The position numbers and the translations under genes were made by a program. Of a stretch of DNA of 64,000 bases, positions 12,387-59,123 are shown one piece after another. Below the pieces are notes generated by a model. That model saw nothing but the letters and a program-made list of their open reading frames with translations, did no database searches and was not told the DNA's origin. The DNA is from an uncultured Actinomycetes bacterium (GTDB lineage: Bacteria > Actinomycetota > UBA4738 > HRBIN12). How positions within the stretch are numbered: the first letter of the stretch is position 1; every line of letters begins with the position of its first letter. Location: contig CAVZUW010000012.1 in assembly GCA_963778545.1 (NCBI GenBank), positions 192,194 through 256,193 on the forward strand, read 5' to 3'.

Positions 12387-13389
12387 ATGGCCATCGGGAA
12401 GCCAGATCTCCCATCACAGGATGAGGGCGATGACAACGGTCTGCCGGCGGAGGCAGGTCTCATGAGCGACGCGAGTTCCCCCGAGGCCGTGACTCCACTC
12501 GAGGCCGCGACGCAACCCGAGGCCGCGACGTCCGACTACGAGGCCGACTCGACGAGCGCACGCAGCCCGAGGCCGCGACGCCGATCGAGGCCGCGACGCA
12601 GCCGGAGCCCGAGGCCGCGACGCCGATCGAGGCCGCGACGCAAACCGAGGCCGCGACGCCGATCGAGGCCGCGACTCCACCCGAGGCCGCGACGCAACCC
12701 GAGTCTGCCGGCATGCCCGAGTCCGAGTTCGACACGGTTCGGCGCGGACTCGCCCCCGATCAGGTGGCCAGCTACCTCAAGCGCGTGGCGACGAGCGTGC
12801 TGAGCCTCGAGGCGAGACTCAGCGACACGACGTCCGAACTCCTCGAGACGAGGCGGGAACGCGACAACGCGCGAGCGGAGCTCGAGGCGGCCTCTGCCGC
12901 CCGAGATCCGTACGTGAACGTGTCCGATCAAGTGACGGGGCTCGTTCGGAGCTTCGACCACCAGATGAGCGGGCTGCTGCGCGACGCCGAGGCCGAGGCC
13001 GAGCGTGTCCGGTCCGAGGTACGGATCGAGGCCGACCGCATCCTCGCGCATGCGCAAGAGGAGGCGGAGCGCATCGTCGAGGAGGCGGAGGAGGAAGCGG
13101 ACCGGACGCGTGCGGATGCGCGGTTGGTGGAGGAGGAGTCCCGGATGCGGGCCGGACGGCTGATGCTCGAGGCGCGGCAGGAGGCCGACCAAGCCGAGAG
13201 TCATCTCGCGACGCTGCGAGGAACGATGCTCGACACGTTCCGGGATATCCGCGAGCGCACCCGCGCGGCGCTGGGCGAGGTCGAGGCCGTGATCGAGAGC
13301 GAGGCGACGTCCGACCGGCTGGTGATCGTCGACGATGCCGCCGGGTCCAGCCCCGGCGGACCTTCCGGAGGTTCCCCAGACCGGATCTG
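12387..13389 (+). CDS. DivIVA-domain protein with acidic EAAT-repeat N-terminus; frame break near 12560, 3' end uncertain
   Basis: ATG 12387 behind AGGGAGGGG. DivIVA signature FDTVRRGLAPDQVASYLKRV followed by a long coiled coil (EAEAERVRSEVRIEADRILAHAQEEAERIVEEAEEEA). As written, the frame reads on for 700 nt into the next gene, so the true stop (possibly TGA 13387-13389 in frame +1) is inferred. Confidence 0.6.
12501..12700 (+). repeat. 18-nt-period tandem repeat (GAGGCCGCGACGnnnnnn), about 9 copies, encoding EAAT(P/Q)x
   Basis: GAGGCCGCGAC starts at 12501, 12519, 12569, 12587, 12611, 12629, 12647, 12665 and 12683. The first two copies are in a different frame phase from the remaining seven. 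Confidence 0.9.
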
Positions 13390-13448
13390 TGATCCGAGGC
13401 CGGACGACGGCCGGTGCGATCGCGGGTCGTTCGGTAACCTGTGCCGCC

Positions 13449-14313
13449 GTGCCGAAGAGGACCCGCAACCGACAGCTCGCCAGGCAGCACGAGCGGCGCC
13501 AGGCCGAGCGCCTGCAGCAGCAGCGCAAGCGCCAGGTGACGACGATCGTGGTCGCACTCGTGATCGCGCTCGTGGGTGGTGGCATCGCCTACTACGCGTT
13601 CGGGCTGGCGGCGACGACACCCAGGCGGGGGCCTCGGGCGGCGACGGGGTCCACGGGCGAGCCGACGACCGGGCCGACCGGTGCGACGTCGAGCCCGAAG
13701 ACCGTCAAGCCCACACCCGGACCCGCGGAGGTCGCCTGCGGCGGCACCGAACCCAAGGCGGCCACCAAGCCGAAGCCGCAGTTCTCGGCGCCCAAGCAGG
13801 TCGTGAAGCCGGGGACGACCTACACGGCGGAGATGCAGACCTCGTGCGGCACGATCGTGATCGAGCTCCTCGCCGACCAGGCGCCGCAGACGGTCAACTC
13901 GTTCGTGTTCCTCGCGCAGAGGGGCTACTTCGACGGGCAGCGGTTCCACCGGCTCGACACGTCGATCGACGTGATCCAGGGGGGCGATCCGACCGGGACC
14001 GGCTACGGGCGGCCCGGGCTACTCGATCCCCGACGAGCTCACCGGGAACGAGTCCTACGGGCCCGGCATCCTCGCGATGGCCAACGCCGGGCCCGACACC
14101 GGCGGGAGCCAGTTCTTCCTGATCACGGGCGACGCCGGCCACAACCTCGACGCGAATCCCGCGTACACGATCTTCGGGACGGTGGTCGAGGGTCTCGACG
14201 TCGCCAAGCAGATCCAGGAGCTGCCGATCCAGGACCCCTCGGCGGGCATCCGGGCCAGCAGCCGACAGCAGTCCGTCTACATCGAGAAGGTCACGATCCG
14301 CGAGGGCAGGTAA
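13449..14313 (+). CDS. membrane-anchored cyclophilin-type peptidyl-prolyl isomerase (PpiB-like), frame break at G-run 14007-14009
   Basis: Basic N-terminus plus TM ([21 protein letters not shown]) and a Pro/Thr linker. Cyclophilin core [20 protein letters not shown] then, after removing one [43 protein letters not shown]... Confidence 0.85.
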
Positions 14314-14330
14314 GGGTTAGGCTGCCGGTC

Positions 14331-14416
14331 GCCCGGGTGCCGGAACTGGCAGACGGATGCGCCTTAAAAGCGCTGGTCCCGAGAGGGACGTGTGGGTTCG
14401 AATCCCACCCCGGGCA
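14331..14416 (+). tRNA. tRNA-Leu, anticodon TAA (UAA), type II with long variable arm; CCA not encoded
   Basis: Acceptor GCCCGGG pairs with CCCGGGC plus discriminator A. Anticodon loop CTTAAAA, T-arm GGTTCGAATCC, long variable arm GGTCCCGAGAGGGAC. Confidence 0.9.
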
Positions 14417-14440
14417 CGCGGAACGCCGGCCGCGTTCGGC

Positions 14441-14830
14441 CTACTGCGGGACCCCGTCCACGAGCTCGATCGTCTTGCTGCGGTCGCCGCGGCAACCGGG
14501 CGAACGGCCCACCTTCGCGTAGAAGAACCCGTCCCGGAAGCCGGTGTTGCCGACCGACCACTCGCCGTGGTCGCCCTGCGGGTCCGAGGTGTCCGAGGCG
14601 ATCCGGTCGTCGGTGCTCGGGGACTGCTCGTCCCCCAGCTGCTCGAACACCGAGACGCGCCGGTCGCCGAGGCAGGACGCACTCGAGCTGACCAGCCGGC
14701 CGTGGAAGTCGCCGTTCGGACCTCGGATCGTGAGCCTGGTCGCCACGGAACCGCCCGCGGCGGCGACGCCGGCGAACGCGATGCTGCAGACCACGACACC
14801 GATCACCAAGACCGTGAGTCTCGATCTCAT
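14441..14830 (-). CDS. small secreted hypothetical protein
   Basis: ATG at 14830 gives the signal peptide MRSRLTVLVIGVVVCSIAFAGVAAAG. No recognisable family. Confidence 0.5.
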   Translation of the reverse strand: MRSRLTVLVIGVVVCSIAFAGVAAAGGSVATRLTIRGPNGDFHGRLVSSSASCLGDRRVSVFEQLGDEQSPSTDDRIASDTSDPQGDHGEWSVGNTGFRDGFFYAKVGRSPGCRGDRSKTIELVDGVPQ

Positions 14831-20533: not shown

Positions 20534-21943
20534 ATGAGTGCTTGGCGTCCGAGATCCAGGGCCGGCCTGCTCGCCGCGTTGCTGTTGGTGTCCGCGGTGT
20601 TGGGCGCGATGGTCCAGTTCTCCCCGGGTCCGGCGAGCGCCGTCGAACCCCCCCCGAACATCGTGATGATCCTGACGGACGACCAGCGCGCGGACACGCT
20701 GGGGTTCATGCCGATCGTGCAACGGACGCTGGGCAAGCACGGCGTGACGTTCACGAACGCCTACGTCTCGAACCCCGTCTGCTGTCCGAGCCGCGCCACG
20801 ATCCTGACCGGCCTGTACTCGCACTCGACCGGTGTGTACACGAACGACCTGGACGGTGGGTTCGCGATGTTCGACGACAGCTCGACGATCGCGACGTGGT
20901 TGCAGGCCGCCGGGTACCACACGGGCCTGTTCGGCAAGTACCTGAACGGCTACGAGAGCGAGTACACCCCTCCCGGGTGGGACCGATGGTTCGCGACGCA
21001 CGAGAGCGGCGACTACTACGACTACTCCGCGACGTCGGACGGCACGATCGTGGACTTCGGGGACGATCCGAACGACTACGGGACCTCCGTGGTGGGCGAC
21101 CAGACGATCTCGTTCATCCGCGACACCCCCGCCGAGCAACCGCTGTTCGCGTACGTGAGCCTTCCCGCACCGCACGAGCCCGCGATCCCGGCTCCCGGTG
21201 ACCAGGACGGCTTCGGCAAGATCGAGCCCTGGCGACCGCCCAGCTACAACGAGAAGGACATGAAGGACAAGCCCCTGTACATCCGGGACAACCCCTGGCT
21301 GAAGGCCGACCGCCGTCGCGAGATCGACCGGGCCCGGGTCCGGATGCTCCGGACGCTCCCGGCGGTCGATCGCCTCGTCGGGGACGTCATCGACGCGCTG
21401 CGCGAGACCGGACGGCTCGAGAACACGATGGTGGTGTTCACCTCGGACAACGGCGTGTTGTGGGGCGAGCACCGGTGGGGTGCGAAGGACGTGCCGTACG
21501 AGGAGGCCGTCGCCGTCCCGCTCATCGTCCGGTACGACGCCCTGCTCTCCGGCGCCCGGCGGGACGCCAACCTCGTCACCAACCTCGACTTCGCACCCAC
21601 GTTCGCGGAGCTGGGCGGCGCGGTCGCCCCCGACATGGAGGGGATCAGCTTCCTCCCGCTGCTGCTCGGCCAGGCCGAGCTGTGGCGAGACGGGTTCCTG
21701 ATGGAACACATGGCCTCCCACGGCGGCAACGGCGTCCCCTCCTATTGCGGGTTCCACACGAAGCGCTACGTGCTCGTCCGCTACAACGGCGGTGACGGCG
21801 AGCTCTACGACCTTCGCGTCGATCCGTGGCAGCGAGACAACCTGTACGACCTGCCGGCGTACTCGGCGCTGCAGGCGTCGCTGAACGAGCGTCTGGTCGC
21901 CGCCTGCGTGCCCATGCCCCGCGGCCTGGTCCTCGGCGACTGA
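20534..21943 (+). CDS. secreted sulfatase (formylglycine-dependent)
   Basis: NIVMILTDDQRAD and CCPSRATILTGLY (CxPxR FGly motif), plus GKYLNGY and FTSDNG motifs. Confidence 0.9.
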   Translation: MSAWRPRSRAGLLAALLLVSAVLGAMVQFSPGPASAVEPPPNIVMILTDDQRADTLGFMPIVQRTLGKHGVTFTNAYVSNPVCCPSRATILTGLYSHSTGVYTNDLDGGFAMFDDSSTIATWLQAAGYHTGLFGKYLNGYESEYTPPGWDRWFATHESGDYYDYSATSDGTIVDFGDDPNDYGTSVVGDQTISFIRDTPAEQPLFAYVSLPAPHEPAIPAPGDQDGFGKIEPWRPPSYNEKDMKDKPLYIRDNPWLKADRRREIDRARVRMLRTLPAVDRLVGDVIDALRETGRLENTMVVFTSDNGVLWGEHRWGAKDVPYEEAVAVPLIVRYDALLSGARRDANLVTNLDFAPTFAELGGAVAPDMEGISFLPLLLGQAELWRDGFLMEHMASHGGNGVPSYCGFHTKRYVLVRYNGGDGELYDLRVDPWQRDNLYDLPAYSALQASLNERLVAACVPMPRGLVLGD

Positions 21944-22015: not shown

Positions 22016-22041
22016 GCAACCCTGGCCCTACCTCCGACGTT
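22016..22041 (+). promoter_or_regulatory. possible ECF-type autoregulatory promoter GCAACC-N16-CGTT
   Basis: AAC-containing -35-like hexamer at 22016-22021, a 16-nt spacer, and CGTT at 22038-22041, 18 nt before ATG 22059. Confidence 0.3.
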
Positions 22042-22058: not shown

Positions 22059-23333
22059 ATGGTTATCAGGGTTCCCGACCAGCGCAAGACGCCGGGCGGC
22101 TATGCCGCCCTGGACGACCGACTCCTGGTTCTGGACTTCCAGGCGGGCAACCCCCAGGCCTTCGTCGAGATCCACAACCGGTACGGGGCGTTGGCTCGTC
22201 ACGTCTGCCAGCGCTTCCTGCCCCAGCAGCAGGACGCGGACGAGGCCTTCCAGGAGACGATGATCCGGGTCTTCCAGGGGCTCTACCGCTTCAACGGCCG
22301 GTACGCCCTCCAGCCCTGGATCGCCAGGATCGCCAAGAACGTCTCGCTCGACCACCTCCGTGGGCGGGCCCGGAGGCCGCAAGCCGACGACTCGGCGCCG
22401 GCGAGCGACGAGCTGGCGATGCCCGGCGACGAGGCCGACGAGATCGTCGAGCGACTCGTCCAGCGCGACACGGTGCTCTCGGTGCTCTCCGACCTGCCCG
22501 AGACCCACCGGCGCGCGCTCATGCTCCGCGAGATCGAGGGGCGCTCGCACCGCGAGGTCGCCCAGGAGATGGAGATCTCGCCCTCGCAGGCCAAGGCCCT
22601 GATCCACCGCGCGAAGGGGAGCTTCCGCCGACTGTGGCTCGAGAAGGTCGCCGACCGCGGCGGGCTGATGGGGTTCGCCTTCCTGCCGCTGCTGTGGCTG
22701 GCACAGGCGCTCGAACGGCTTCCGACGGGTCGCGGATCGGGTGGGCTTCGCGGCGCAGAGCGCCCAGGCGGCCGTGCCGGAAGCGGTCACGTCCGCGGTG
22801 AGCACGACGGCGGCCCCGGTGGCTTCGAGCGGTGTCGGCGAGCGCCTGGTCGCGGCGGGCATGACCTTGCTCCTGGCCGGGGGCGTCACGGTGGGCGCCG
22901 CCAAGATCGTGAGCGACCGGGCCGAGCCAGGAGCCCCCGCCCGCGCCGAGGTGACGCCGCAGCGGCGACCGGTGGTGCGGACGATCGCATCGTCCCGCCG
23001 GTCGACGAGGATCCGCGCGTGAAGGCGACGGGCGGCAAGCACGAGATCAAGGCGGAGCCGCCGGTCGTCCTGCCCGAGCCCGAGCCCCGCCGTGGAGCCC
23101 GAGGACCGGCCGTGGAGACGCCGCCCGGAGCCGAGCCCGGAACCGTCGCCGACACCCTCGCCCGAACCCACCCCGGCCCCGGCGCCGGCCTGGTCGTTCG
23201 AGCTTCACGTCGTCGACCGAATCCGTCGAGACGTGTTCGTGCTCTCCGCGATGGTGCAGCTGGTCGGTTCGCAGTTCGATCACGCGCAGGACGGCTTCAC
23301 GTTCTCGCAGAACATCCGAGGAGGCACCCGTGA
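22059..23333 (+). CDS. ECF (group IV sigma-70) sigma factor; ORF continues past region 4 into a TM segment and low-complexity read-through
   Basis: Region 2 (FQETMIRVFQGLYRFNGRYALQPWIARIAKNVSLDHLR) and region 4 (LPETHRRALMLREIEGRSHREVAQEMEISPSQAKALIHRAKGSF). No stop after region 4. A hydrophobic stretch GGLMGFAFLPLLWLAQAL follows. Beyond about 22715 this frame looks non-coding (RG-rich). Confidence 0.8.
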   Translation: MVIRVPDQRKTPGGYAALDDRLLVLDFQAGNPQAFVEIHNRYGALARHVCQRFLPQQQDADEAFQETMIRVFQGLYRFNGRYALQPWIARIAKNVSLDHLRGRARRPQADDSAPASDELAMPGDEADEIVERLVQRDTVLSVLSDLPETHRRALMLREIEGRSHREVAQEMEISPSQAKALIHRAKGSFRRLWLEKVADRGGLMGFAFLPLLWLAQALERLPTGRGSGGLRGAERPGGRAGSGHVRGEHDGGPGGFERCRRAPGRGGHDLAPGRGRHGGRRQDRERPGRARSPRPRRGDAAAATGGADDRIVPPVDEDPRVKATGGKHEIKAEPPVVLPEPEPRRGARGPAVETPPGAEPGTVADTLARTHPGPGAGLVVRASRRRPNPSRRVRALRDGAAGRFAVRSRAGRLHVLAEHPRRHP

Positions 23334-23765
23334 CTCCGAGGGCGACCTGACCTGGCCGTTCTCGCTCCTGCTGTGGGGGGAGGTTCGGTCCGAGGCCGGC
23401 CAGGTCGACTTCCGCCTCACCCTGACCTCGGGCGCAGGGAACTACCTCTACGGTGGGTCGGGGGTCCTGGCCGAGGTCGACGGAGCTGGAGGACGGCGCC
23501 GCCGAGCTATCGCTTCGAGGGTACCGTTCGAGCGCTCAGGAACGATCGCCAGTCGGTGGCGGGGCTGCCCTCGAGGGGGTTCGTGAGCGCCACGATCAGG
23601 GTCTGGCCGGATGGGACGATCTACGCGGGCTCGCTTCTCGCTCGAAGACGTCCCGGCCTGATTCCCCCACGAGCAGCAACCTTTCGCCGACCCGGTCGTT
23701 ATCTAGAGATGGACAAGCACGAGGACGACCCTGTTCGAGAGGGGGAAGGCTCGCTCCCGGCGTAG
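22741..23765 (+). other. probable continuation of the sigma-factor ORF in alternating frames: second TM helix, Pro-rich linker, extracytoplasmic beta-rich domain
   Basis: Frame +1 gives AAQSAQAAVPEAV...LVAAGMTLLLAGGVTVGAAKIV. Next comes KAEPPVVLPEPEP / PEPSPEPSPTPSPEPTPAPAPA, then WSFELHVVDRIRRDVFVLSAMVQLVG...GAGNYLYGGSGVLAEVDG, then SYRFEGTVRALRNDRQSVAGLPSRGFVSATIRVWPDGTIYAG. Frame switches fall near 22715, 22960, 23090 and 23490. Confidence 0.45.
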
Positions 23766-23802
23766 AGCCGAAGGGAGCCGGGGAGTGGGATGCGGCCGAG
23801 TG

Positions 23803-23830
23803 TTGACTGGCATCGCCAGCGGCATACCAT
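23803..23830 (+). promoter_or_regulatory. sigma-70-like promoter TTGACT-N16-TACCAT upstream of RTX paralog A
   Basis: TTGACT at 23803-23808 and TACCAT at 23825-23830. RBS GGAGGAGAGAAAGGAG lies before ATG 23910. Confidence 0.4.
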
Positions 23831-23909
23831 CGGCCGACTTCCCTGCAGGGCGCTTGCGTCCCTGCGTGGCAAAGGATCTGTGTTGGACGGAGGAGAGAAA
23901 GGAGCTCAT

Positions 23910-25810
23910 ATGAGTTTCCTCCGTAAAGGAGTACGGCGCCGGGGGAGGGTAGCGACCGCTCTGACGACCGTCGGAGCGCTCGCGGCCTTCCAGGTCCTGG
24001 CGATCATCGGGGCGGGGGCGGCGTCGGCCGTAACCGGCTGCACGTACAACCTGGCCACCGGCACGATCAACATCACGATCGACCCGGGCGAAGATCGCGG
24101 CGTCGCCGTCGAGAGACGCGAACGACCTCGACCCGGAGTCGCCTGCCGGCGCGATCCTGTTCAGCGCCGACTGGACGGCTTCGAAACGGTGCTGCAGCAC
24201 GCAGTGCGGGAGCGCCAGCGAACACGAACACACGTGCGATCGTCGTCCTCGGCTCGCCGGGCAACGATGAGGAATTCTACATCGACGAGGCGGTGGAACG
24301 GCGGCGGCACGTTCAACACCGCGATCGCGTGGGCGGTCGACATCGGGCTCGAACACGTCGGCGACTTCGACGACGTCGTCCTGCTTGCGGACGGCACGGC
24401 GACAACGACGACGCGATCACGCTGACCGACGGCGGCGTTCGACCTGAACGGCGCCGCCGGCGACGGTCCTCGGCGTCGAGAAGTTCCACGTCGTGCGGCG
24501 GTGCGACGGCGACGACGTGATCGACGGCGGCCGGCTGTCAACCTCGTCACTGCTCGACGCGGTCGGCAACGACGGCGACTGAGGTCGCGCTCGGCGCGCA
24601 GGCCGGCTCCCGAACGCCCTCGGCTCGGCGAGATCGTCGCCGGCGGCGCCGGCGTCGACACGCTGAGCTACGCGCACGCGGACGACCGCCGCGTCGTCAT
24701 CGATGCGCGGCGGCGACGGCCGGCCACGACGCCAACGGCGACTGCGACGTCGCCGACGCCGGCGACGAGCAGGACACCATCATCGACTGCTTCGAGATCT
24801 CGAGACCGGCTCGGGCAACGACATGCTCGTCGATGGCGCATGCGGCGCCGACGAGAACTAGGCTCCCGGGTGACGGTGACGACGACATCACCGGCAACGG
24901 CGACGACGACGTGCTCGACTGGTCGGGCTCCTCGCGCCGGCATGACGATCGACACCGGCGCTCGGTACCGCGACGGGCCAGGGTGCCGACACGTTCGACG
25001 GACGTCGACCAACTTCATCGGCTCGCCGTTCGATGACACCCTCGATCTGGGACGACTGGACGTGGACACGTTCGTCGGTGGGGACGGGGTCGACACGGTC
25101 GACGCGTCCGCGCTGACGACCGGGCCAGTCGATCGACCTCGACGACCTGGACGATCGGCGTCTGCCCGCTCGGGACCGGTCACGGCCGACAGCCTGGAGA
25201 ACGCGATCGGCGGCTCGGGCAACGACAACCTGGACGGCAACGACATCCGCAACATGCTCGACGGCGGCGACGGTGACGACGTGCTGAGCGGCGCGGCCGG
25301 GAACGACACCCTGCTCGGTGGGGACGGCAACGACACCTACATCGGTGGCACCGGCGCCGACAGGGTCAGCTTCGCCAACTCCCCGCAGAAGGTGAACGTG
25401 GACCTGAGCCTCGGGTTCGCGACCGGTGAGGGCGACGACACCTTCGTCGACGGAGTCGAGATCATCCTCGGCTCGGCCTTCAACGACACATCACCGGTGG
25501 CCCGTTCGGCGGCGGTGGCACGGTCAACTTCCTGTTCGTCGGCAAGAAGGGGAACGACACCCTGACCGGGTTCAGCGGCAACGACACCCTCAAGGGTGGC
25601 GGCGGCAACGACATCCTGCGGGGCGTCGGCGGCGACGACACCATGCTGGCCGCGGCCGGCAACGACCGCCTCTTCGGTGGCGGCGGTACCGACATCGGCA
25701 AGGGTGGCAAGGGCAACGACACCTGCACAAGGTCGAGATCAAGACGAGCTGCGGGAAGAAGGGCAACCCCGCAGCCCCGCAGACCGGAGTCGCGGGCAGG
25801 CTCGAACTAG
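23910..25810 (+). pseudogene. RTX paralog A: Sec-signal protein with hemolysin-type Ca-binding nonapeptide repeats, heavily frame-disrupted (at least 10 breaks)
   Basis: MSFLRKGVRRRGRVATALTTVGALAAFQVLAIIGAGAASA | VTGCTYNLATGTINITIDPGE. GGxGxDxLx arrays appear in shifting frames (GGSGNDNLDGNDIRNMLDGGDGDDVLSGAAGNDTLLGGDGNDTYIGGTGADRVSF; GNDTLTGFSGNDTLKGGGGNDILRGVGGDDTMLAAAGNDRLFGGGGTDIGKGGKGNDTC). The 3' end is taken as TAG 25808-25810, just before the terminator. Confidence 0.7.
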
Positions 25811-25840
25811 AGCTGACCGCAGTTCCGAAGGCACCGAGGG

Positions 25841-25874
25841 ACCGGCCCCCGAAAGGGGGCCGGTTCCTTTTCTT
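25841..25874 (+). terminator. rho-independent terminator
   Basis: Perfect 10-bp stem ACCGGCCCCC / GGGGGCCGGT with a GAAA loop, followed by TCCTTTTCTT. Confidence 0.8.
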
Positions 25875-25893
25875 GCGGTTGTCCACCGAACGG

Positions 25894-25919
25894 GGAACCG
25901 GATCTATCCGCCGTCCGTC
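25894..25919 (+). promoter_or_regulatory. ECF-type promoter-like motif GGAACC-N16-CGTC upstream of RTX paralog B
   Basis: GGAACC at 25894-25899, a 16-nt spacer, and CGTC at 25916-25919, 75 nt before ATG 25994. Confidence 0.45.
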
Positions 25920-25921
25920 GA

Positions 25922-25950
25922 TTGAATGGCGCCTAGCACCCCTATAGGGT
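25922..25950 (+). promoter_or_regulatory. sigma-70-like promoter TTGAAT-N17-TAGGGT
   Basis: TTGAAT at 25922-25927 and TAGGGT at 25945-25950, in the only AT-enriched stretch of the intergenic region. Confidence 0.35.
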
Positions 25951-25993
25951 TGGCGCGAGCTCATCTAGTGGTCTTGGCGAGGGAGGTCCGAAG

Positions 25994-27759
25994 ATGCGAG
26001 GTTCGATCCGGTCCAGAACGCGCGACCGTCGGAGGGACTCGATCACGGGCGTGGTGGTCGCTGCGGCGGCACTGTTGCTGCCGCTGGTGGTACTCCTTCC
26101 ACCTGCCTCGGCGGCGGTCACTTGCAATGCGCGCTGGTGGCGGCGACGTTGACGTCACCATGGCGTCGGGCGACTCGGTCACGATCTCGATGGCCGGTGC
26201 GGGCGACATCGCCGTGACCCCGAGTCGTGGACGCCAGCTGCGACGGCGCACACGGATGCCACTGTCGACACTGATCGACGTCAACGGGCACAGCTGGCAA
26301 TGAATCCGTCACGATCAACGAAACGGTGGGGGCACCGCCTTCAACAGCGACGACGACTTCAACATCGATCGGTGGCGCAGCGGCACGGACTCGCTCACCA
26401 TCCTGGGTACCGGCGGCGCCGACACCATCACGTTCGACGCCGTTCGTCAGTGAACGGGGCCGACATGACGTGCGACGGGTGTCGATAACTTCACGGTGAA
26501 CGCCGGCGCGCGGTGCTGACAACGATGAACGGTGGGACGTTCGCGACCGGCGCTCACACGTGAATGGCGGCGACGGGGCCGACAGCCTCACCGGTGGCAC
26601 CGGCAACGACACCATCAACGGAGGCCCCGGAAACGAGCAACGACACCCTCAACGGCGGCGCGCGGAACCGATCTCCTGACCGTACTCGGGCGTCAGCGCC
26701 GCCCTGACCGTTAGCCTCGCGACGACCGCCGCGCAGACCACCGGTGGTGCGGGGAGCGACACGATCTCGAACTTCGAGAACCTCACCGGCGGATCGGGCG
26801 GTGACACGCTGACGGGATCCTCGGCGGCGAACACCATCAATGGAGCCGCCGGCGACGACACCATCAACGGGGGCGATGGCAACGACGTCCTGAACGGGGA
26901 CGACGGCAACGACACGCTCCGAGGTGAGGGTGGCGACGACACCATCAACGGCGGCGCCGGAACGGACACCGCGAGCTACTCGACCACTTCAGGCGCCGTC
27001 ACCGTGAGCCTGGCGGTCGCCACCGCCCAGACCACGGGTTCCGCGGGGAGCGACACGATCCCCGCCGGCACGGAGAACCTGACCGGCGGATCGGGCGGGG
27101 ACAGCCTCACGGGTAGCACCGGCAACAACGTGCTCTCCGGAGGAGCCGGTGACGATTCCCTGAACGGCGGTGACGGCAACGACACGCTGAACGGAGACGA
27201 CGGCAACGACACGCTCTCCGGCGGCAACGGCGACGACGCCGTCAACGGCGGCAACGGATCGGACACCGCGAACTACGGTGCGGCGGCCGCTGGCGTGACC
27301 GTGAACCTGTCCACGAACTCGGCGACCGGGGAGGGGACCGACGCGCTGACGGGCGTCGAGAACGCGACCGGATCCTCGCACGACGACAACCTCACCGGTG
27401 GAGCCGACGCGAACCAGCTCCGCGGGGGGAGCGGGAACGACGTCATCGGCGGAGGAGGCGGAGGCGACACCTTGAAGGGTGGCAGCGGGGTCGACTCGAT
27501 CAACGGACAGGCCGACGCCGATGTCGTGGCCGGAGGCGCCGACAATGACAACGTCAAGGGCGGCGACGGCAACGACACCGTCAAGGGTGGCGGCGGAGCC
27601 GACACCGCGGGCGGCGGGGGCGGCAACGATGACGTCCTCGGCGGGAACGGCAACGACAAGCTGACCGGCGGGGCGGGCAACGACCACCTCAAGGGCGGCT
27701 CGGGCAGGGACAACTGCAACGGCGGGTCGGGCAACGACTCGATCTCGGGCTGCGAGTAG
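25994..27759 (+). pseudogene. RTX paralog B: about 10 frame breaks in the first 690 nt, intact RTX-repeat C-terminal 1080 nt
   Basis: RBS GAGGGAGG. MRGSIRSRTRDRRRDSITGVVVAAAALLLPLVVLLPPASA | AVTC. N-domain pieces sit in three frames (GGGDVDVTMASGDSVTISMAGAGDIAVTPS; VVDASCDGA; GTAGNESVTINETVGAP; FNSDDDFNID...TDSLTILGTGGADTITF). From 26680 there is a single open frame full of GGxGxDxLx repeats, ending ...GGSGRDNCNGGSGNDSISGCE*. Confidence 0.75.
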
Positions 27760-27783
27760 CGCGCACCGCATCTGGACCAGCGG

Positions 27784-27818
27784 AGCGGCCTCCGGTCATC
27801 GGGGGCCGCTTCGTTCGT
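27784..27818 (+). terminator. probable terminator hairpin after RTX paralog B
   Basis: AGCGGCCTCC / GGGGGCCGCT stem (one G-U pair), 7-nt loop, and a T-poor tail TCGTTCGT. Confidence 0.45.
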
Positions 27819-27964
27819 CCCGTTCCTGCGTTGCCCGGCCGGCGTCGGGTGCCATGCTAGGCTCGATCGCGTTCCGACCGGATGAACGATCTCGGCTGGA
27901 ACGGCGCCTCGCGGAGCGGAAGGACACGGTGGTGGCCGAACGACGACCGGACCGCACGAGGGTG

Positions 27965-28958
27965 ATGCCCCGGCTCAGGGCGGCGCTGTGCGTGCTCGTC
28001 CTCGGCGTGTTCTTCGTCGGCCTGAGCGCCGTCCCCGCGTCCGCCGCAACGTGTTCGGGCGAGGGCGACGTCACCATGACGGTCGATCTCGCGGGCGGAG
28101 AGGCGGTCACGCTCTCGCTGAGCGGGGCCGAGGATCCTCGCACCATCGACGTGACGCCGGGCGATCCGAGCTGTGGGGGATTCGACACGTCGACGGTCGC
28201 GACGATCCAGGTCAACGGCGCCGACGGGGACGAGAGCGTCACGATCGACCAGAGCCGGGAGTGCACCGTTCCCCCACCAGAGCACGATCTCGATCGGTCT
28301 CGCGCTCGGTGGTGGCGCCGACTCGCTGGTGATCGTCGGACAGACGACGGCCGACGAGATCGGGCTCGGGACCAACGGCATCAGCCTGGACGCGGGTGGC
28401 ACCCCGGACGTCACCGGTGTCGACACCGCCGAGAACGTCGGCGTCCGTGCCGGGGGAGGCGACGACGTGGTCTCGGGCAAGGAGGGCGCCGGGCTGGGTG
28501 ATGCGTTCGCCACGACGCTCACGATCGACGGCGAGGAAGGCAACGACGACCTCGCGGGTGGGAACGGCGACGACGCGATCGGCGGGGGCAGCGGGAACGA
28601 CACCCTCAAGGGCAGCGGAGGGGGCGACACCGTCGACGGGGGTGACGGCGACGACGTCGTCTCCGGCGGCGCGGCCAGCGACGTCCTCACGGGCGGCGGC
28701 AACGCGGACCGGCTGAAGGGCGGCGCGGACGCGGACACGATCGACGGCGGTGACGGCGTGGACAACCTCACCGGCGGCGGAGGCGCGGACACCCTCAACG
28801 GAGGCGAGGGCAACGACCGTCTCGAGGGCGGCGGGGGCGACGACCGCATCAAGGGGGAGAACGGCAAGGACCAGCTCTCCGGGGGTCCCGCAGAGGACTT
28901 CTGTCTCGGCGGCCCCGACCCCGACTCGATCACCGGCTGCGAGCACGGGCGCCCGTAG
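27965..28958 (+). CDS. RTX paralog C (shortest copy), single +1 frame break near 28257
   Basis: MPRLRAALCVLVLGVFFVGLSAVPASA | ATCSGEGDVTMTVDLAGGEAVTLSLSG...DVTPGDPSCGGFDTSTVATIQVNGADGDESVTIDQS. After dropping one C it continues GSAPFPHQSTISIGLALGGGADSLVIVG...RTX repeats...EDFCLGGPDPDSITGCEHGRP*. Confidence 0.8.
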
Positions 28959-28982: not shown

Positions 28983-30161
28983 CTAGGCCTCTCCCGGGTC
29001 GGGTCCGGGGAGCACCAGGACGGCGTTCGTGATGTGCCGCTCCCGCCCGTCCGAGGGCCGGTTCACGACCTCGCCGTCCACGACCATCTCGGAGGAGCCC
29101 CCGCCGTCGAGGTTCAGGGCGTCGACGGCGCCGAGATCTCGCAGGATCGTCCTCAGCTCGCCGAGCGTCGCCCCGCGCGACCAGTGCGGCCGGCGGCCGT
29201 CGATCACGACGAGGAGGATCTTGCCGTCGGCGGTCACGCCCAGACCGGTGCGCGGTTGGCGCGCGCACGAGGTGCAGATGGAGGTCGGTGCACCGTCCTT
29301 GAGCAGGATCGGATCACCGCCGACCGCGTCGAACACGTCCGGCCAACCGAGCGTCCAATGCAGGCGCATCGGGGTCCCGGGGGTGAGCGCGAGCAAGGTC
29401 TTCGATTCCTCGGTGCCGGGGGCGGTGGAGATCACGACGCCGCCGTTGCGGACCAGCGGCGACGCGGAGCACGAGGCCTCGTCGACGACGTAGTCCCGGT
29501 CGACGCCGTCGGGGTCGGCGGCCCGAGGCGGGCCGTCGGGCAGCATCCGGACCGAGCACGAGAAGGACGGCGGCGCCGCGAGCGTGCCTCCCAGGGGCGA
29601 GAACCCGATGATCTCGCCCGGCTCCGGCGCGCGCTGGTTCCATCGGTCCAGCGTGAAGACGCGGTCGCTGGATCGATCGGTCACGGTGACGCGGAGCCTG
29701 GGGTTCCCGAGGAAGGTTCGCGTCTCGTCGCGGCTGACGGCGAACATCTCGGCGCCCGGGCCGGCGGTGTGCAGGAGGTCGCCGTCCTGGGCGAACGGGT
29801 GCACGGTGTTGCCGAGCCCCTCACCCGGGTCGCCGTTCACGCCGGCGAGCGCCTCGTGGTTCCGAACGATCCGCGACAGCTCGCGTCGCGACGGCAAGGC
29901 ATCATCCGCGATCGTCGTGTCGAGCGTGATGGCCTTCGTCAGATCGATCTTGAGGACGAACGTCCGGAGCGGGATCTGGCGCCGCACGATCCGGATGAAG
30001 GTGAGGCCCGGGGCGATCTTCCTGGTCTTCACGATCGGGGCGCGAGGCCCGGAGAACGTCCGATCGGCTCCGGCCTCCTGCGGGGGGATGATCGCGAGCG
30101 CCAGGAGCACGGCCGCGGCCAGGGGGACCAGATGGCGGATGGTAGGGTGCACGGGTTTCAC
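28983..30161 (-). CDS. secreted phosphodiester glycosidase family protein (DUF2233/NAGPA-like)
   Basis: In-frame GTG at 30161 gives the signal anchor HLVPLAAAVLLALAIIPPQEAGA. C-terminal ALNLDGGGSSEMVV motif. The upstream 347 codons of the 739-aa ORF are antisense to the next gene and were discarded. Confidence 0.8.
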   Translation of the reverse strand: MKPVHPTIRHLVPLAAAVLLALAIIPPQEAGADRTFSGPRAPIVKTRKIAPGLTFIRIVRRQIPLRTFVLKIDLTKAITLDTTIADDALPSRRELSRIVRNHEALAGVNGDPGEGLGNTVHPFAQDGDLLHTAGPGAEMFAVSRDETRTFLGNPRLRVTVTDRSSDRVFTLDRWNQRAPEPGEIIGFSPLGGTLAAPPSFSCSVRMLPDGPPRAADPDGVDRDYVVDEASCSASPLVRNGGVVISTAPGTEESKTLLALTPGTPMRLHWTLGWPDVFDAVGGDPILLKDGAPTSICTSCARQPRTGLGVTADGKILLVVIDGRRPHWSRGATLGELRTILRDLGAVDALNLDGGGSSEMVVDGEVVNRPSDGRERHITNAVLVLPGPDPGEA

Positions 30162-30185: not shown

Positions 30186-31412
30186 GTGCGCACAGTCAGC
30201 CTTTTCGCGATCGCGCTCGTCGCGCTCATCGGGCTCGGCGCGACCGAGGCGACCGCCCAGTCGTCCGTGTGGGGTTCGAGCAACGGTGTGCTCGTGTTCC
30301 GCTCGGATCGGGACGGCGAACCCGACCTGTTCACCGTCGACGCCGGGGGCTCCGGCGCCGAGAACCTCACGCCCGCCTCCGGCGCCGCCGAGCTGCAGCC
30401 GGCGTGGTCGCCCGCGGGCGACCGGATCGTGTTCGTGCGGCGGGCGGGCATCACCGGCCGCGCGGACCTCTTCGTGGTGAATGCATCGGGGGGCGGACGC
30501 ACCCGGCTGACCTCCACACCGGTTCCCGAGCGGGATCCTTCGTGGTCGCCGAACGGCACCCTCATCGTCTACTCGGCCCGAACTCAGCCGGGCGAGCCCT
30601 TCCGGATCTTCGTTGCCAAGGCGGACGGCTCGGGTCGCGAACAGCTGACGACCCAGTCGGCGGGCTCCGCCGACCGGTCGCCCGTGTGGTCGCCCGACGG
30701 GACCCGCATCGCGTTCGTCTCGAACCGGGACGGCGGGTTCCCCGAGCTCTACATCATGTTCGCGGACGGGACCGGTGTCGTGCGCCTCACGAGCAACTCG
30801 TTCATCGACGCGAACCCGTCCTGGTCGCCCGACGGCAGCAGGCTCGTGTTCGAGCGGTGCTGCGAGGGCGGCACCTCGGATCTGTTCGCGATCGACGTCG
30901 CCACCCGTGCCGAGGTGAACCTGTCGAACTCCGGGGACCAGCAGGAGTTCGACCCCGTCTGGTCGCCCGACGGGACGCGGATCGCGTTCGTCTCGTTCGC
31001 GGTCGGCCAGGGCAACCTCGACATCTGGGTGATGGACGCCGACGGCTCGAACCCGGTCCGGCTCACGCAGGAAGCCGGCCCGGATCTCTCGCCCGACTGG
31101 CAACCGCTGCCCGTGTGCACGATCAACGGGACCGAGCAGGTCGACGACCTCAGGGGCACCGACGCGAGCGATGTGATCTGCGCGCTCGGGAGCGACGATC
31201 ACGTCAAGGCGCTCGGCGGCGACGACCTCGTGCTCGGCGGGAAGGGGAACGACGCGCTCGAGGGCCAGGAGGGTGCGGACGCCCTGTACGGGGAGGGCGG
31301 CGACGACGCGCTGCAGGGCGGCCCCACGTACGACGTCCTCGACGGAGGCTCGGGCACCGACACGTGCAACCGGGGCGCCGACGGCGCCGCGCGACGGCTC
31401 TGCGAGCTCTGA
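30186..31412 (+). CDS. secreted TolB-like PD40 beta-propeller protein with C-terminal RTX-type repeats
   Basis: Signal peptide MRTVSLFAIALVALIGLGATEATA. Repeated (P)xWSPDG(T/S)RI(A/V)F motifs, five to six copies. The tail GGDDLVLGGKGNDALEGQEGADALYGEGGDDALQGG ends in C..C. Confidence 0.8.
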   Translation: MRTVSLFAIALVALIGLGATEATAQSSVWGSSNGVLVFRSDRDGEPDLFTVDAGGSGAENLTPASGAAELQPAWSPAGDRIVFVRRAGITGRADLFVVNASGGGRTRLTSTPVPERDPSWSPNGTLIVYSARTQPGEPFRIFVAKADGSGREQLTTQSAGSADRSPVWSPDGTRIAFVSNRDGGFPELYIMFADGTGVVRLTSNSFIDANPSWSPDGSRLVFERCCEGGTSDLFAIDVATRAEVNLSNSGDQQEFDPVWSPDGTRIAFVSFAVGQGNLDIWVMDADGSNPVRLTQEAGPDLSPDWQPLPVCTINGTEQVDDLRGTDASDVICALGSDDHVKALGGDDLVLGGKGNDALEGQEGADALYGEGGDDALQGGPTYDVLDGGSGTDTCNRGADGAARRLCEL

Positions 31413-41139: not shown

Positions 41140-41223
41140 CCTGCATCTCGACGGAGCGGCCATGTGGGCGCTCGAGGTGACGACATGAACCACGCATCAC
41201 CCAAGTGTGGGAAGGAGGTGAAC

Positions 41224-41436
41224 ATGTTTCTCCTCATGTACGCGAAGGCCAAGACCCTCGGCTGGAGCCTGCGCGAGCGGGTGACGGACGAGTCCGGAGC
41301 CGTGTCGACGGAGTACGGCCTCCTTCTGGTGCTGATCGCCCTGGCGATCATCGCCGCTGCGACGGCCCTGGGTCTCGCGATCGCGGGTGTCTTCAGCCGC
41401 GGTTCGACGGCACTGAACCCGGTGGCCCCGAGCTAA
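41224..41436 (+). CDS. flp: Flp-family type IVb pilin, copy 2
   Basis: Leader ending DESG, then AVSTEYGLLLVLIALAIIAAATALGLAI. Same RBS as copy 1. Confidence 0.85.
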   Translation: MFLLMYAKAKTLGWSLRERVTDESGAVSTEYGLLLVLIALAIIAAATALGLAIAGVFSRGSTALNPVAPS

Positions 41437-41450
41437 CCCGAACCATGCAC

Positions 41451-41498
41451 GAGCGGCCTCGTCGGCCGCTCGATCCTCCCCCGAGAGCGGGGGGATCG
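41451..41498 (+). terminator. twin GC-rich hairpins after flp2 (possible attenuator or RNA-stability element; no U tract)
   Basis: GAGCGGCC-TCGTC-GGCCGCTC (8 bp) is followed directly by CGATCC(T)CCCC...GGGG..GGATCG. Confidence 0.35.
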
Positions 41499-41561
41499 AG
41501 GGGCCGACGAACCGATCAGCCGGCGCCCAAGCGACGGATCCGAACGGGAAGAGGACGACAT

Positions 41562-41990
41562 ATGACGAGGCTCAGAAGGCGCGCCGCGGGCGATCGCGGC
41601 GCTGTGGCCGTTGAATTCGCTCTGATCCTGCCCGTGCTGCTGCTCATCGTGGTCGGCACGATCGAGTTCGGCCGCGTCTACAGCCAGGTCCAGCTCTACA
41701 ACGGGTCGGCGCGCGAGGGTGCTCGGTGCGCGGCCGTGATGGCGCAATCGTTCGCGACGTGCCGGTCGCTCGGTGACGTCCAGCAGCGGATCAACGAGGC
41801 CTCGGACCCGTACGCGGACCCGCCCGCCGCCGTCATCGCGACGGGTGGGGTCGCGGGGACCGGCTGCACCGACACGACGATCGGCCAGACCGTCAGCGTG
41901 TCCTGGAACCAACCGCTCCGACTCGATATCCCGTTCTGGGGGCACGTGACCGTGACCCCCACGATCAAAGCGAGCTTCCGATGCGAGTGA
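41562..41990 (+). CDS. tadE: TadE-like pseudopilin
   Basis: RGAVAVEFALILPVLLLIVVGTIEFGRVY is the TadE N-terminal signature. Confidence 0.8.
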   Translation: MTRLRRRAAGDRGAVAVEFALILPVLLLIVVGTIEFGRVYSQVQLYNGSAREGARCAAVMAQSFATCRSLGDVQQRINEASDPYADPPAAVIATGGVAGTGCTDTTIGQTVSVSWNQPLRLDIPFWGHVTVTPTIKASFRCE

Positions 41991-43044
41991 ACCCGCGATA
42001 CGCGCAAGGTCGAACCGACTTCACCACGACGAGTCCGGCGCGGTCCTGATGGTCGTCGCGGTGACGCTCCTCGTGTTGATCGGCATGCTGGTCCTGACGG
42101 TCGACCTCGGTCGCGCGGTCGCCATCAAGCGGGAGATGGTCGCCGGGGACGGACGCGGCCGCGCTCGCCGCCGCTCACCGAATGCGCCCTCGGGCACTCG
42201 ACCGGCCAGGCCTCCGCGGCCGCGAGCGCGATCCTGGCCCAGAACAAGTCCGGCGCGACGCTGAACGGTCCGATCACGGCTCCCGGATGCGGCCTGACGC
42301 CAACCGAACCCCAGATCGTCACGATCGATACGAACGTCCAGATGGACTACTTCTTCGCGGGGATCTTCGGCTTCAACTCGGGTGAGGTGGGCGCTCACGC
42401 GGTCGCTGAGTGGGGCGTCGTGGCGGGCGGGCTGGGCGTGCCCGATCACGGTCGATCTCCAGCAGCTCCTGAACTGTGGCATCACACCCGACCCGCCATC
42501 GCCCGCCGAGGTCGACGGCTGCCAGCTCGAGTATCCGAAGGACACGCTGAGGAACCACGCTGGGGCGTCTTGGATCTGTCGAAGTGGGGAGACCGGGACG
42601 CGGCGCCCTGTTCGGTCCCGGCGAGCGTCTCGACCGACCTCATCAACAACGGCGGCGCCTTCGACCCGCTGCCGGCGCCTGCCTACGACTGCATCGACAA
42701 CGGGTTGTCGGACTCGGTGTGGGAGTCGTTGGAGGGGCAAGCTCCTGCTCTTCCCCGTGTTGGACCTGGACCTGTCCGAGGGCACGGTCAAGCCGAACAG
42801 CGGCGCTCTGGGCGGCACCGATTGCACCGGGGCGCAGATCGACTCGCTCCGAGCGCAGGGCTACGACTGCCAGATCGACACGGCGTACATCGTGGGATGG
42901 ATCCAGCTGTTCGTCGAGGACGTGTCCAAGCACGGTCCGGACATCACCGTGACGGTGGACTACCGAGGGATCACTACGGGTGGAGGCATCCCGGGCGACG
43001 ACACCTTCGACTTTGGGGCCCGGGCCGTTCGCCTCGTGAACTAG
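41981..43044 (+). pseudogene. TadG-like (TadE/G family) pilus protein, 6 frame breaks
   Basis: ATG 41981 overlaps the tadE stop. Pieces: ESGAVLMVVAVTLLVLIGMLVLTVDLGRAVAIKREMV / TDAAALAAAH / ECALGHSTGQASAAASAILAQNKSGATL...MDYFFAGIFGFNSGEVGAHAVAEWG / PITVDLQQLLNCG... / WGVLDLSKWGDRDAAPC... / KLLLFPVLDLDLSEGT...FGARAVRLVN*. Four of the breaks are one-base expansions of G or C runs (42145-48, 42178-79, 42441-43, 42734-37). Confidence 0.7.
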
Positions 43045-43109
43045 CTCGAGAACCGGCTCAAGTGGCGAACGCCCTAAGACGATGAACAAGTGACAAAGGG
43101 GGATCGAAG

Positions 43110-43928
43110 ATGAAGTCACGAGGAGTGGTCGTCGTTCTGGCGCTCATCCTGGCAACGATCGCGACGGCGGGTGTGTTCCTGTACTCGCAAGGCGTGAAGC
43201 AGGATGCGATCAAGGGTGGAGACCTGCGGGACGTGATCGTCTCCAAGGTCGACATCGCCGCCAACACCGAGATGGACGAGCTGATCGCCGCCGACCAGTT
43301 CGAGCTGCTGCAGGTGCCGGTCGACGCGGTCGTCGACGGCGCCGTCACGGACCTCGCGCAGCTGCGCGGTCAGCGCAACACGGCGTTCATCCTCGCCGGC
43401 GAGCAGATCCCGATCTCGCGGGTCGAGTCGGGCGAGATCCCCGGCGGCGTCCTCGGCATCCCCGAGGGACATCAGGCGATCAGCGTCTCGCTGGACGCGC
43501 CGCGGGCGATCGCCGGCGCCCTGGCGGGCGGCGACAACGTCACGATCTACGCCACCTTCACGGAAGTGAAGATCAACCTCGTCCAGAAGGACTTCCTCAA
43601 GTCGCTGCAGGCGGGCAACGTGAGCGGCCTGACCTCACAGGGCGAACTGCCGTCGTTCGACACGACCGTGGTGCTGGCCCCCGAGGTCGAGGTGCTCCGC
43701 GTGGCGCGTACGACCGACGCTGCGGCCGAAGATGAGCAGGCCGAGCAGCAGGCGACGCAGGGGCCGGTTTCGGTGACCCTGGCGTTCCTGCCGGACGAGG
43801 CGCAGCGGTTCGTCTTCGCGATGGAGCTCGGACAGGTGTACCTCTCGCTGCTGGCCCCCGATGAGGCCGGTACCGAGCTGGAGCCCCTGACCTTCGCCCG
43901 GGTGTTCCTGCCCGAGAAGACGAAGTAG
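43110..43928 (+). CDS. cpaB: Flp pilus assembly protein CpaB/RcpC
   Basis: N-terminal TM (VVVVLALILATIATAGVFLY), SAF-like segment (VIVSKVDIAANTEM) and the RcpC beta-domain pattern. Confidence 0.85.
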   Translation: MKSRGVVVVLALILATIATAGVFLYSQGVKQDAIKGGDLRDVIVSKVDIAANTEMDELIAADQFELLQVPVDAVVDGAVTDLAQLRGQRNTAFILAGEQIPISRVESGEIPGGVLGIPEGHQAISVSLDAPRAIAGALAGGDNVTIYATFTEVKINLVQKDFLKSLQAGNVSGLTSQGELPSFDTTVVLAPEVEVLRVARTTDAAAEDEQAEQQATQGPVSVTLAFLPDEAQRFVFAMELGQVYLSLLAPDEAGTELEPLTFARVFLPEKTK

Positions 43929-43930
43929 CC

Positions 43931-45152: not shown

Positions 45153-45176
45153 CCCACGCGCCGTTAGGAGGAACCG

Positions 45177-59083: not shown

Positions 59084-59123
59084 CGATGCGGAGTGTAGAA
59101 GCGACCGAACCGGGGCGGTCACG

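Follow-up and report, generated by a model that had tools for sequence, protein, structure and literature searches.

Three tandem genes downstream of a sigma factor gene

We analyzed a 64 kb stretch of DNA (hereafter, the window; G+C content about 70%) from contig CAVZUW010000012.1 of an uncultured Actinomycetes bacterium. The subject of the analysis is a row of three tandem genes on the plus strand, denoted A, B and C, which follow a gene for an extracytoplasmic function (ECF) sigma factor and code for proteins with RTX repeat arrays. An earlier interpretation made from the letters and reading frames of the window, referred to here as the sequence-only reading, had described the three as tandem paralogs sharing one architecture. 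This is borne out by their leaders, by the homology of the domains that follow the leaders (N-domains) and by their PF00353 repeats. The gene starts proposed in that reading (23910, 25994 and 27965) and the end at 28958 all agree with the sequence. The stop codon of A is TAG at 25808 and that of C is TAG at 28956-28958. Coordinates of all features are collected in Table 1.

No single frame carries all of A, nor of B, nor of C. Repaired frames were obtained by aligning the intact proteins of a syntenic contig, L004 (JGI 3300086615, Ga0683531_0000848), to the window DNA in a protein-to-DNA alignment with frameshifts allowed. The gene order in this contig is sigma factor (530 aa), A (628 aa), B (583 aa), C (328 aa), a gene with a NAGPA domain on the opposite strand and a PD40-RTX gene (408 aa). 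The intact copies are close in length to the approximately 630, 590 and 330 codons that had been estimated for A, B and C. Another contig, L005, was left out as a comparator, as it looks like an inverted-duplication misassembly: in L005:1-10552 the C, NAGPA and PD40-RTX genes occur twice, inverted and accompanied by fragments, which resembles an assembly artefact.

Leaders, repeats and cysteine pairs

All three proteins begin with a basic n-region followed by a hydrophobic core of about 20 residues, the sequence ASA and a cysteine 1-3 residues further on. The leader of A reads MSFLRKGVRRRGR...AGAASA, that of B MRGSIRSRTRDRRRD...PPASA and that of C MPRLR...AVPASA. As read from the sequence, each appears to be a tripartite Sec-type signal peptide with an AxA cleavage site, in line with the signal peptides ending in A-x-A and followed by Cys that had been noticed before.

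The repeats are recognized by Pfam in every copy. PF00353 matched the window pieces with E-values of 2e-23 (C), 4e-51 (the RTX part of B) and 6e-10 (a piece of A), corresponding to scores of 82, 171 and 39 bits, where the Pfam gathering score is 23. Matches to the intact homologs were of the same order for B (E 3e-49, 165 bits) and stronger for A (E 2e-22, 79 bits). The Pfam check of the repeats proposed in the sequence-only reading is thus significant in all three copies. Pfam found no family besides PF00353 in the three proteins, and NCBIfam returned just sub-threshold, repeat-level matches for them.

Cysteines are placed regularly. Both B and C end in C-x11-CE, the conserved C-terminal pair expected from the earlier interpretation, and this ending is invariant in 56 homologs of C. 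A ends in a tighter pair, C-x8-C. Four cysteines are invariant or nearly so in each of the two families for which larger alignments were made, namely residues 30, 68, 311 and 323 of C (56 homologs) and C43, C96, C601 and C610 of A (64 homologs). The proteins are also very acidic (net charge from -41 to -72) and contain 17-24% Gly. A, B and C probably bind Ca2+, and a location at the cell surface is plausible.

An N-domain shared by the three copies

The N-domains of B and C are 38% identical (E 1e-16). A direct comparison of profiles built from N-domain-only alignments (hhalign) matched the A type to the B/C type over 108 columns with a probability of 94% and an E-value of 1.2e-7. The match takes in the second cysteine and the motif I-x-V-x-G-x-x-G-x-E-x-x-x-I-D...G-x-x-F, and in a joint alignment of the A, B and C N-domains both cysteines and the I-x-V...G-x-x-F core line up. 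The A N-domain is thus more distant than those of B and C are from each other, yet homologous to them.

The sequence-only reading did not recognize the N-domain as any named family. The searches led to the same result: the domain has no match in Pfam, NCBIfam or a PDB sequence-profile search, and Foldseek against the PDB revealed no separate known fold for it and nothing beyond RTX. A weak CBM13-like match (E 6.5e-4) was below the cut-off and was dismissed.

The N-domain profile retrieved 311 representatives (E <= 1e-3) among 1.84 billion. In most of them the domain sits at residues 30-50, just after the leader, and at times it is internal or repeated. PF00353 is present as well in nine of ten distant members, some of which carry GSDH and PKD, DUF11 or fn3 modules. 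The combination of N-domain and RTX array therefore behaves as a module; judged by its distribution, the N-domain is a mobile module and more than a leader-proximal cap. Among distant relatives, P0252, P0263, P0281, P0284, P0301 and P0312 have the N-domain in an internal position or in up to 3-4 copies per protein.

Predicted fold

We modeled intact homologs of C (P0003) and A (P0121) with AlphaFold2 using family alignments. The models have pLDDT values of 90.4 and 90.2 and a pTM of 0.84. Both are all beta; in their repeat part a short strand recurs every nine residues, and in both the leader region is a low-confidence N-terminal helix. The best Foldseek matches in the PDB are the RTX blocks of CyaA (7rah; 6sus), the beta-rolls of serralysin and alkaline protease (1kap, 1omj) and RTX lipases. 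6sus superimposes on the A model with a TM-score of 0.62 on the target, an rmsd of 3.1 A and 31% identity. MpAFP (3p4g) is a weaker match for C, and RsaA (6p5t) stands far down the list for A. By prediction, therefore, the modeled proteins have the parallel beta-roll expected of RTX proteins. On the simplest reading, the N-domain would prolong the beta-roll without a break as an irregular solenoid cap.

Size and distribution of the family

Database queries with C and with A each retrieved more than 100 clusters of full-length relatives, at 55-91% identity for C and 45-89% for A. The relatives are either unnamed or bear generic names such as 'calcium-binding protein' and 'Ca2+-binding RTX toxin-like protein'. 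Those with a stated taxon derive from metagenome bins of Actinomycetota. The GTDB species set contains the A family in 11 species-level metagenome-assembled genomes (MAGs), entered as 'uncultured Actinomycetes bacterium MFD...' or as bins labeled Actinomycetota, Acidimicrobiia and Solirubrobacterales.

The sigma factor and its probable control of A

The core of the sigma factor consists of PF04542 and PF08281, and TIGR02937 scores 91 bits against a cut-off of 42.9. Hydropathy analysis of the C-terminal extension points to hydrophobic, probably membrane-spanning helices near residues 203-218 and 262-283 (Kyte-Doolittle peaks at about 212 and 272). They are followed by a Pro-rich linker and then by a domain of about 170 aa, which has no Pfam or NCBIfam family and only chance-level matches in the PDB. 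C50, C392 and C394 are the only cysteines of the protein, and the extension lacks a ZAS zinc-finger motif. ECF sigma factors fused to a membrane-anchored, anti-sigma-like extension are a known kind, represented by the actinobacterial groups ECF48, ECF52 and ECF53 (e.g. SCO4117) and by IutY of Pseudomonas putida (PMC8999054).

Synteny ties the sigma gene to A. In L001-L004 and in 10 of the 11 GTDB species loci A is the next gene after it, and the two remain neighbors where the sulfatase gene has been transposed (L002, L011). In most loci A is still followed by B; C is limited to the closest relatives, and the NAGPA and PD40-RTX genes are kept downstream in relatives. The linkage to the sigma factor suspected in the sequence-only reading thus holds, and it is accompanied by a shared, conserved ECF-type motif. 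That reading would have been undermined by a characterized family for the N-domain, or by genes that are decayed and unlinked to the sigma factor in all relatives; what we found instead is an N-domain lacking a characterized family, sigma-linked orthologous loci and intact relatives. On the evidence of gene order and motif, the link between the ECF sigma factor and A is real.

AAC...CGT is the usual ECF promoter type. A motif of this kind, AACC-N15-16-CGTT, precedes the sigma gene in all 13 loci compared, 39-45 nt upstream in 12 of them and at -77 from an approximate sigma start in L016. It recurs 215-264 nt upstream of A in all ten loci with a defined A start, and the intergenic DNA around these motifs is otherwise divergent. 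As the motif is conserved before both the sigma gene and A, we infer that the sigma factor is autoregulated and that at least A is directly driven by it. The form CAACC-N14-18-CGTT occurs four times in the window (0.86 expected), including the two sites at 22017 and 23677. The other two lie at 21580-21603 (+), in the 3'-terminal part of the sulfatase gene, and at 41910-41935 (+), at the 3' end of a TadE-like open reading frame (ORF) upstream of 42342-43085 and an RcpC/CpaB-like gene; these may be due to chance or may mark further sigma targets.

A and B are also preceded by conserved sigma-70-like elements. That of A recurs in six comparator contigs (Table 1), and TTGAAT-N17-TAGGGT of B is conserved in relatives. 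Species that differ in the surrounding intergenic DNA still share the 5' leader of A. This leader has no Rfam match, and its consensus fold is a small hairpin with almost no covariation. Rfam applied to the locus and to the whole window found one tRNA (14331-14416) and nothing else. The hairpins that had been noticed after A and B were recovered as well, with folding energies of -34 and -35.5 kcal/mol, and both are conserved in L004.

Frameshifts in the locus

At least 45 frameshifts, about 8 per kb, fall between 22713 and 28253. The sigma gene has seven of them, A at least 23, B 14 and C one. Those of the sigma gene lie at 22713-23634, all those of B at 26135-26682 and that of C near 28253. 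In A, 22 follow from the alignment and one more is needed to reach the TAG at 25808. The repaired path has no in-frame stop codon. Flanking ORFs of 450-1080 codons are open and free of frameshifts.

The same stretch is disrupted in other assemblies. L013 (6044-11750) has 34 frameshifts and L001 (4207-9860) has 21 in the sigma-A-B stretch, at different codons and without stops; both are long-read assemblies. A and B are uninterrupted in L004, L007, L009, L010 and L017, and short-read assemblies are among these five. Compared with three of the comparators, the locus forms a valley of divergence with nucleotide identity of 0.68-0.80, against 0.92-0.97 in the flanks. The dS values are 0.5-1.1 in the locus versus 0.15-0.30 in neighboring genes, and dN/dS in the locus genes, measured between the window and L004, is 0.25-0.5. 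Natural indel spectra are deletion-biased; of the 44 scored shifts here, 33 are +1.

Homopolymer-linked sequencing error was considered as a cause and rejected, as only 2 of the 44 sites have a run of at least four bases close by, against a background of 8%. An explanation by methylation motifs was set aside too; judged by eye, CGA-containing contexts seemed about as frequent as Asp and Ser codon usage predicts. The most likely explanation is that the frameshifts are consensus errors of metagenome assembly in a strain-hypervariable locus and not signs of gene death. In this reading, co-occurring strains would differ strongly in the sigma sensor domain, A and B, and the consensus of long-read metagenomes would fail there. 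The sequence-only reading had named the many frame repairs as the limit of its evidence. Many repairs are indeed needed, but they mark a locus-specific indel hotspot, made up most likely of consensus errors.

Export machinery

Pfam was run on long ORFs with high G+C content at third codon positions across the 64 kb. None of the scanned ORFs encodes an ATP-binding cassette (ABC) exporter, HlyD or TolC. The sole ABC ATPase among them (62280-63218) belongs to a Pst-like phosphate-transport cluster (58821-63218). The claim of the sequence-only reading that the window holds no type I secretion system (T1SS) therefore stands for the scanned ORFs.

The proteins themselves also differ from T1SS substrates. 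Classical RTX proteins of this kind have an uncleaved C-terminal signal and no N-terminal leader, and their genes are linked to those for ABC, membrane fusion (MFP) and TolC proteins; A, B and C and the ORFs scanned around them have none of these properties. B ends at the CE of its cysteine pair, C continues for five more residues, and the intact A homolog for 18 after the last cysteine. As the chains end at or near the cysteine pair, they leave no space for a T1SS signal at the C-terminus. Read in this way, the architecture of A, B and C would resolve the paradox of RTX proteins without a T1SS in favor of Sec export. The host is presumed, on its taxonomy, to have a single membrane (monoderm).

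Table 1. Features of the sigma-A-B-C locus and its immediate surroundings (window coordinates)
Feature	Position	Strand	Description
ECF-type motif	22017-22041	+	(C)AACC-N16-CGTT, 41 nt upstream of sigma start; putative autoregulation
ECF sigma factor gene	22059-23661	+	sigma2 and sigma4 with fused C-terminal extension of about 330 aa; 7 frameshifts; from Pfam/NCBIfam and repair against the 530-aa L004 protein
Second ECF-type motif	23677-23700	+	CAACC-N15-CGTT, 232 nt upstream of A start, just past sigma stop codon
Sigma-70-like promoter of A	23803-23830	+	TTGACT-N16-TACCAT; as TTGACT-N17-TAGCAT in L004, L007, L008, L010, L011 and L012
5' leader of A	23831-23909	+	GCAGGG...CCCTGC hairpin, GAAAGGAG ribosome-binding site; conserved
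Copy A	23910-25810	+	leader, A-type N-domain (Cys43/Cys96 in homolog), multi-block RTX, C-x8-C tail; at least 23 frameshifts
Terminator after A	25836-25874	+	hairpin 25836-25869 with 15-bp GC stem, -34 kcal/mol, then U-rich UUCCUUUUCUU; conserved in L004, L001 and L013
B upstream region	25895-25950	+	possible ECF-type GAACC-N16-CGTC (25895-25919); sigma-70-like TTGAAT-N17-TAGGGT (25922-25950)
Copy B	25994-27759	+	leader, B/C-type N-domain, about 23-26 RTX nonapeptides in blocks, C-x11-CE end; 14 frameshifts
Hairpin after B	27775-27819	+	-35.5 kcal/mol, no U tract; conserved in L004
Copy C	27965-28958	+	leader, B/C-type N-domain with PFPHQ motif, about 10-12 RTX nonapeptides, C-x11-CEHGRP; 1 frameshift
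Secreted phosphodiester glycosidase (NAGPA domain)	28983-30161	-	conserved neighbor
PD40/TolB-like beta-propeller with short RTX array	30186-31412	+	ends C-x11-CEL; fourth leader-bearing RTX protein

Neighboring genes

The PD40-RTX gene, absent from the list of the sequence-only reading, is conserved downstream of A, B and C in most relatives. Elsewhere in the window, Pfam identified housekeeping ORFs for Mfd, a PpiC-type peptidyl-prolyl isomerase (PPIase), enolase, a Clp ATPase and an S1-domain protein. Other ORFs code for a glycosyltransferase, an M23 peptidase, a phosphoesterase, a sulfatase, a PhyH-family protein, a cyclophilin, a DsbH-like protein, two LuxR-type response regulators, a Tad pilus cluster, a PQQ-type propeller, a histidine kinase and the Pst-like cluster.

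The Tad/Flp-type pilus cluster (41205-48407) comprises TadE-like, RcpC/CpaB, CpaF-type ATPase and two TadB/C-type proteins. The scanned ORFs include no secretin, which fits a single-membrane host. The ORF at 13335-14522 (+) has a partial cyclophilin match (residues 165-224) and overlaps the tRNA gene at 14331-14416 (+). The cyclophilin region of L004 matches window positions 13972-14122 on the minus strand at 76%. The ORF may be a damaged or duplicated PPIase copy.

Discussion

We consider it fairly probable that A, B and C are tandem duplicates, that they belong to a lineage-specific family of beta-roll proteins in uncultured soil Actinomycetota which bind Ca2+ and are exported by Sec, that A is driven by the adjacent sigma factor, and that the frameshifts are consensus errors. 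According to this model, the sigma factor would be held at the membrane by its own fused extension until an envelope or extracellular cue frees it, as in other fused ECF sigma factors. The freed sigma factor would transcribe its own gene and A, perhaps also B, with housekeeping-type promoters serving A and B in addition. The proteins would leave through Sec and their leaders would be cleaved at AxA. The mature chain would then open with a beta domain of about 130-160 aa, its two cysteines presumably joined by a disulfide. This domain would fold first, stapled by the disulfide, so that the N-domain and the disulfides would provide caps or folding nuclei. The RTX blocks, emerging N-to-C from SecYEG, would fold on the N-domain with extracellular Ca2+, and the C-terminal cysteine pair would cap the end of the chain. 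The weakest step of the account is the role of the proteins, which may be very acidic, Ca2+-loaded extracellular or cell-surface scaffolds or adhesin-like proteins. They might act beside other secreted proteins of the cluster, namely the M23 peptidase, the phosphoesterase, the sulfatase, the NAGPA protein and the PD40-RTX protein.

A number of observations weigh against this model. A, B and C have no LPXTG, SLH or LysM anchoring module, which bears on the proposed surface location. The ECF promoters are assigned from the conservation of the motif among genomes that are related and syntenic. The GAACC...CGTC element before B is present in about half of the relatives and its specificity is low, with 16 matches against 9.3 expected. 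Upstream of C, neither a supported promoter nor an ECF-type motif was found. The proposal of the sequence-only reading that each copy has its own promoter therefore holds for A and B, with their conserved sigma-70-like elements, but is not supported for C, which may be transcribed by read-through past the U-poor hairpin that follows B. Finally, the raised dS of the locus may be partly inflated by the frameshift errors themselves.

The density of frameshifts might also mean that the sigma gene and the three genes after it have recently decayed into true pseudogenes, the regulon having been lost as a unit and the locus being non-functional in this organism. This would agree with the confinement of at least 45 frameshifts to 22713-28253 between large intact ORFs and with the position of the indels off homopolymers, unlike classic nanopore homopolymer errors. 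We nevertheless regard decay as improbable. About 1.5% of random substitutions make stops, so that at 10 substitutions per indel about three would be expected in A alone, and the repaired path has none. The dN/dS of 0.25-0.5 and the predominance of +1 shifts, unlike a deletion-biased natural spectrum, also speak against it, as do the dense frameshifts at other codons of the same genes in L013 and L001 and the five assemblies in which the genes are intact.

The remaining alternatives accept the genes as functional and concern the fate of the proteins. RTX repeats are a hallmark of T1SS substrates, and the examined part of the genome is 64 kb only; A, B and C could then be ordinary substrates with ABC and MFP partners elsewhere in the genome and an N-terminal hydrophobic segment that is not cleaved. 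We find this very unlikely in view of the tripartite leader ending in ASA in all three proteins, the missing uncleaved C-terminal signal (about 50-60 residues) and the conserved cysteine pairs, which suit oxidative folding outside the cell; moreover, none of six RTX-bearing Actinobacteria genomes has T1SS homologs (PMC3034196). Another possibility is that A at least is a lipoprotein, in which the post-leader cysteine is lipidated by Lgt/Lsp and tethers the beta-roll to the membrane. A-V-T-G-C of the window A fits the relaxed lipobox [LVI][ASTVI][GAS]C, and A (T-A-C) and B (A-S-C) of L004 have A or S at -1. However, C (ATC) and B (VTC) of the window do not fit, the -1 residue is T, I or other in many A homologs and T in nearly all C homologs, and the AxA site upstream is conserved. 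The post-leader cysteine also co-varies in presence with the second cysteine of the N-domain (two A-type sequences are without the second), and the N-domain occurs internally in larger proteins as well; a structural disulfide fits better, and we give the lipoprotein explanation little weight. A specific known beta-solenoid function, either a Ca2+-dependent S-layer of the RsaA kind or an ice-binding or adhesin region of the MpAFP kind, seems less probable still. Foldseek does list MpAFP for C and, far down, RsaA for A, and the proteins combine a net charge of -41 to -72 with a richness in Gly and Asp. Yet these matches are weak (E 0.01 to 0.2, TM 0.18-0.34) and explained by the shared beta-roll alone, and no cell-wall anchoring domain was found in the proteins. 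A Thr/Asx ladder for ice binding was neither examined nor seen in them.

The model of Sec-exported beta-rolls can be taken further, although we put the extension forward only as a speculation that is rather unlikely to hold in full. The N-domain might be a folding nucleus that reverses the polarity of RTX folding to N-to-C and thereby opens the Sec route in bacteria with one membrane. Besides this, A, B and the sigma factor's extracytoplasmic domain might co-diversify as a strain-specific system of surface recognition or sensing. If true, such co-diversification would explain both the divergence valley and the breakdown of assembly.

RTX beta-rolls are a textbook fold tied to one export route, the T1SS, with C-terminal-first, Ca2+-driven folding. 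The family described here, with hundreds of members in soil Actinomycetota, couples this fold to a Sec-type leader, a new N-cap domain and putative disulfide caps. A, B and C thus offer a concrete system for studying how a beta-roll folds when its N-terminus emerges first, and they bear on a question left from 2010, namely how RTX proteins of Actinobacteria are exported without a T1SS. The locus also suggests a small regulon for an uncharacterized membrane-tethered ECF sigma factor. Moreover, long-read metagenome assemblies appear to fail systematically at this locus, a point of importance for pseudogene calls in such MAGs.

Relation to known systems

Region IV of MpAFP from Marinomonas primoryensis (3p4g) resembles C in being a Ca2+-stabilized beta-solenoid of similar length. 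The match is weak (E 0.014, TM about 0.3), and the region is part of a giant T1SS adhesin. The repeat period of MpAFP is 19 residues, differing from that of A, B and C.

The closer parallel is with Gram-negative RTX proteins such as CyaA and serralysin. Common to both are the GGxGxDxUx nonapeptides, arranged in A and B in blocks with linkers, the predicted parallel beta-roll and a very acidic composition. Unlike these proteins, A, B and C have a Sec-type N-terminal leader, no uncleaved C-terminal T1SS signal and no ABC, MFP or outer membrane protein genes nearby; they add the two-Cys N-domain and the C-terminal Cys-pair cap, and their host belongs to Actinomycetota. Folding order may differ as well. 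The RTX domain of CyaA, a T1SS substrate, is reported to fold C-to-N in dependence on a C-terminal cap (PMC9120197, PMC12874523). The N-to-C folding proposed for A, B and C would be the reverse of that order.

The sigma factor shares with ECF48, ECF52, ECF53 and IutY the layout of a sigma2-sigma4 core continued by hydrophobic helices, then by a Pro-rich linker and finally by a domain that would lie outside the cytoplasm; proteolytic release is the expected mode of activation in that group (PMC8999054), and a putative autoregulatory AAC...CGT promoter is shared. It differs from ECF48, ECF52 and ECF53 in having no zinc finger and in a C-terminal domain that matches neither a carbohydrate-binding nor any other family.

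The nearest precedent is the survey of Linhartova et al. (2010), which reported six Actinobacteria genomes with putative RTX genes and no T1SS homologs in any of the six (PMC3034196). The likeness consists in PF00353 proteins without T1SS components. The sequence-only reading had presented the three genes as a family not yet described as a unit. The family is indeed uncharacterized and its N-domain matches no named family, but the absence of a T1SS from RTX-bearing Actinobacteria has been known since that survey (PMC3034196), and the interpretation, while right for the most part, is less new than it had claimed. What is new here is the combination of an RTX beta-roll with a Sec-type leader, an N-cap domain, putative disulfide caps and a predicted ECF regulon. 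The survey dealt with neither architecture, export route, domain definition, regulation nor gene context, whereas for the present family the leader, the N-domain, the cysteine caps, the paralogy and the link to the sigma factor are now defined.

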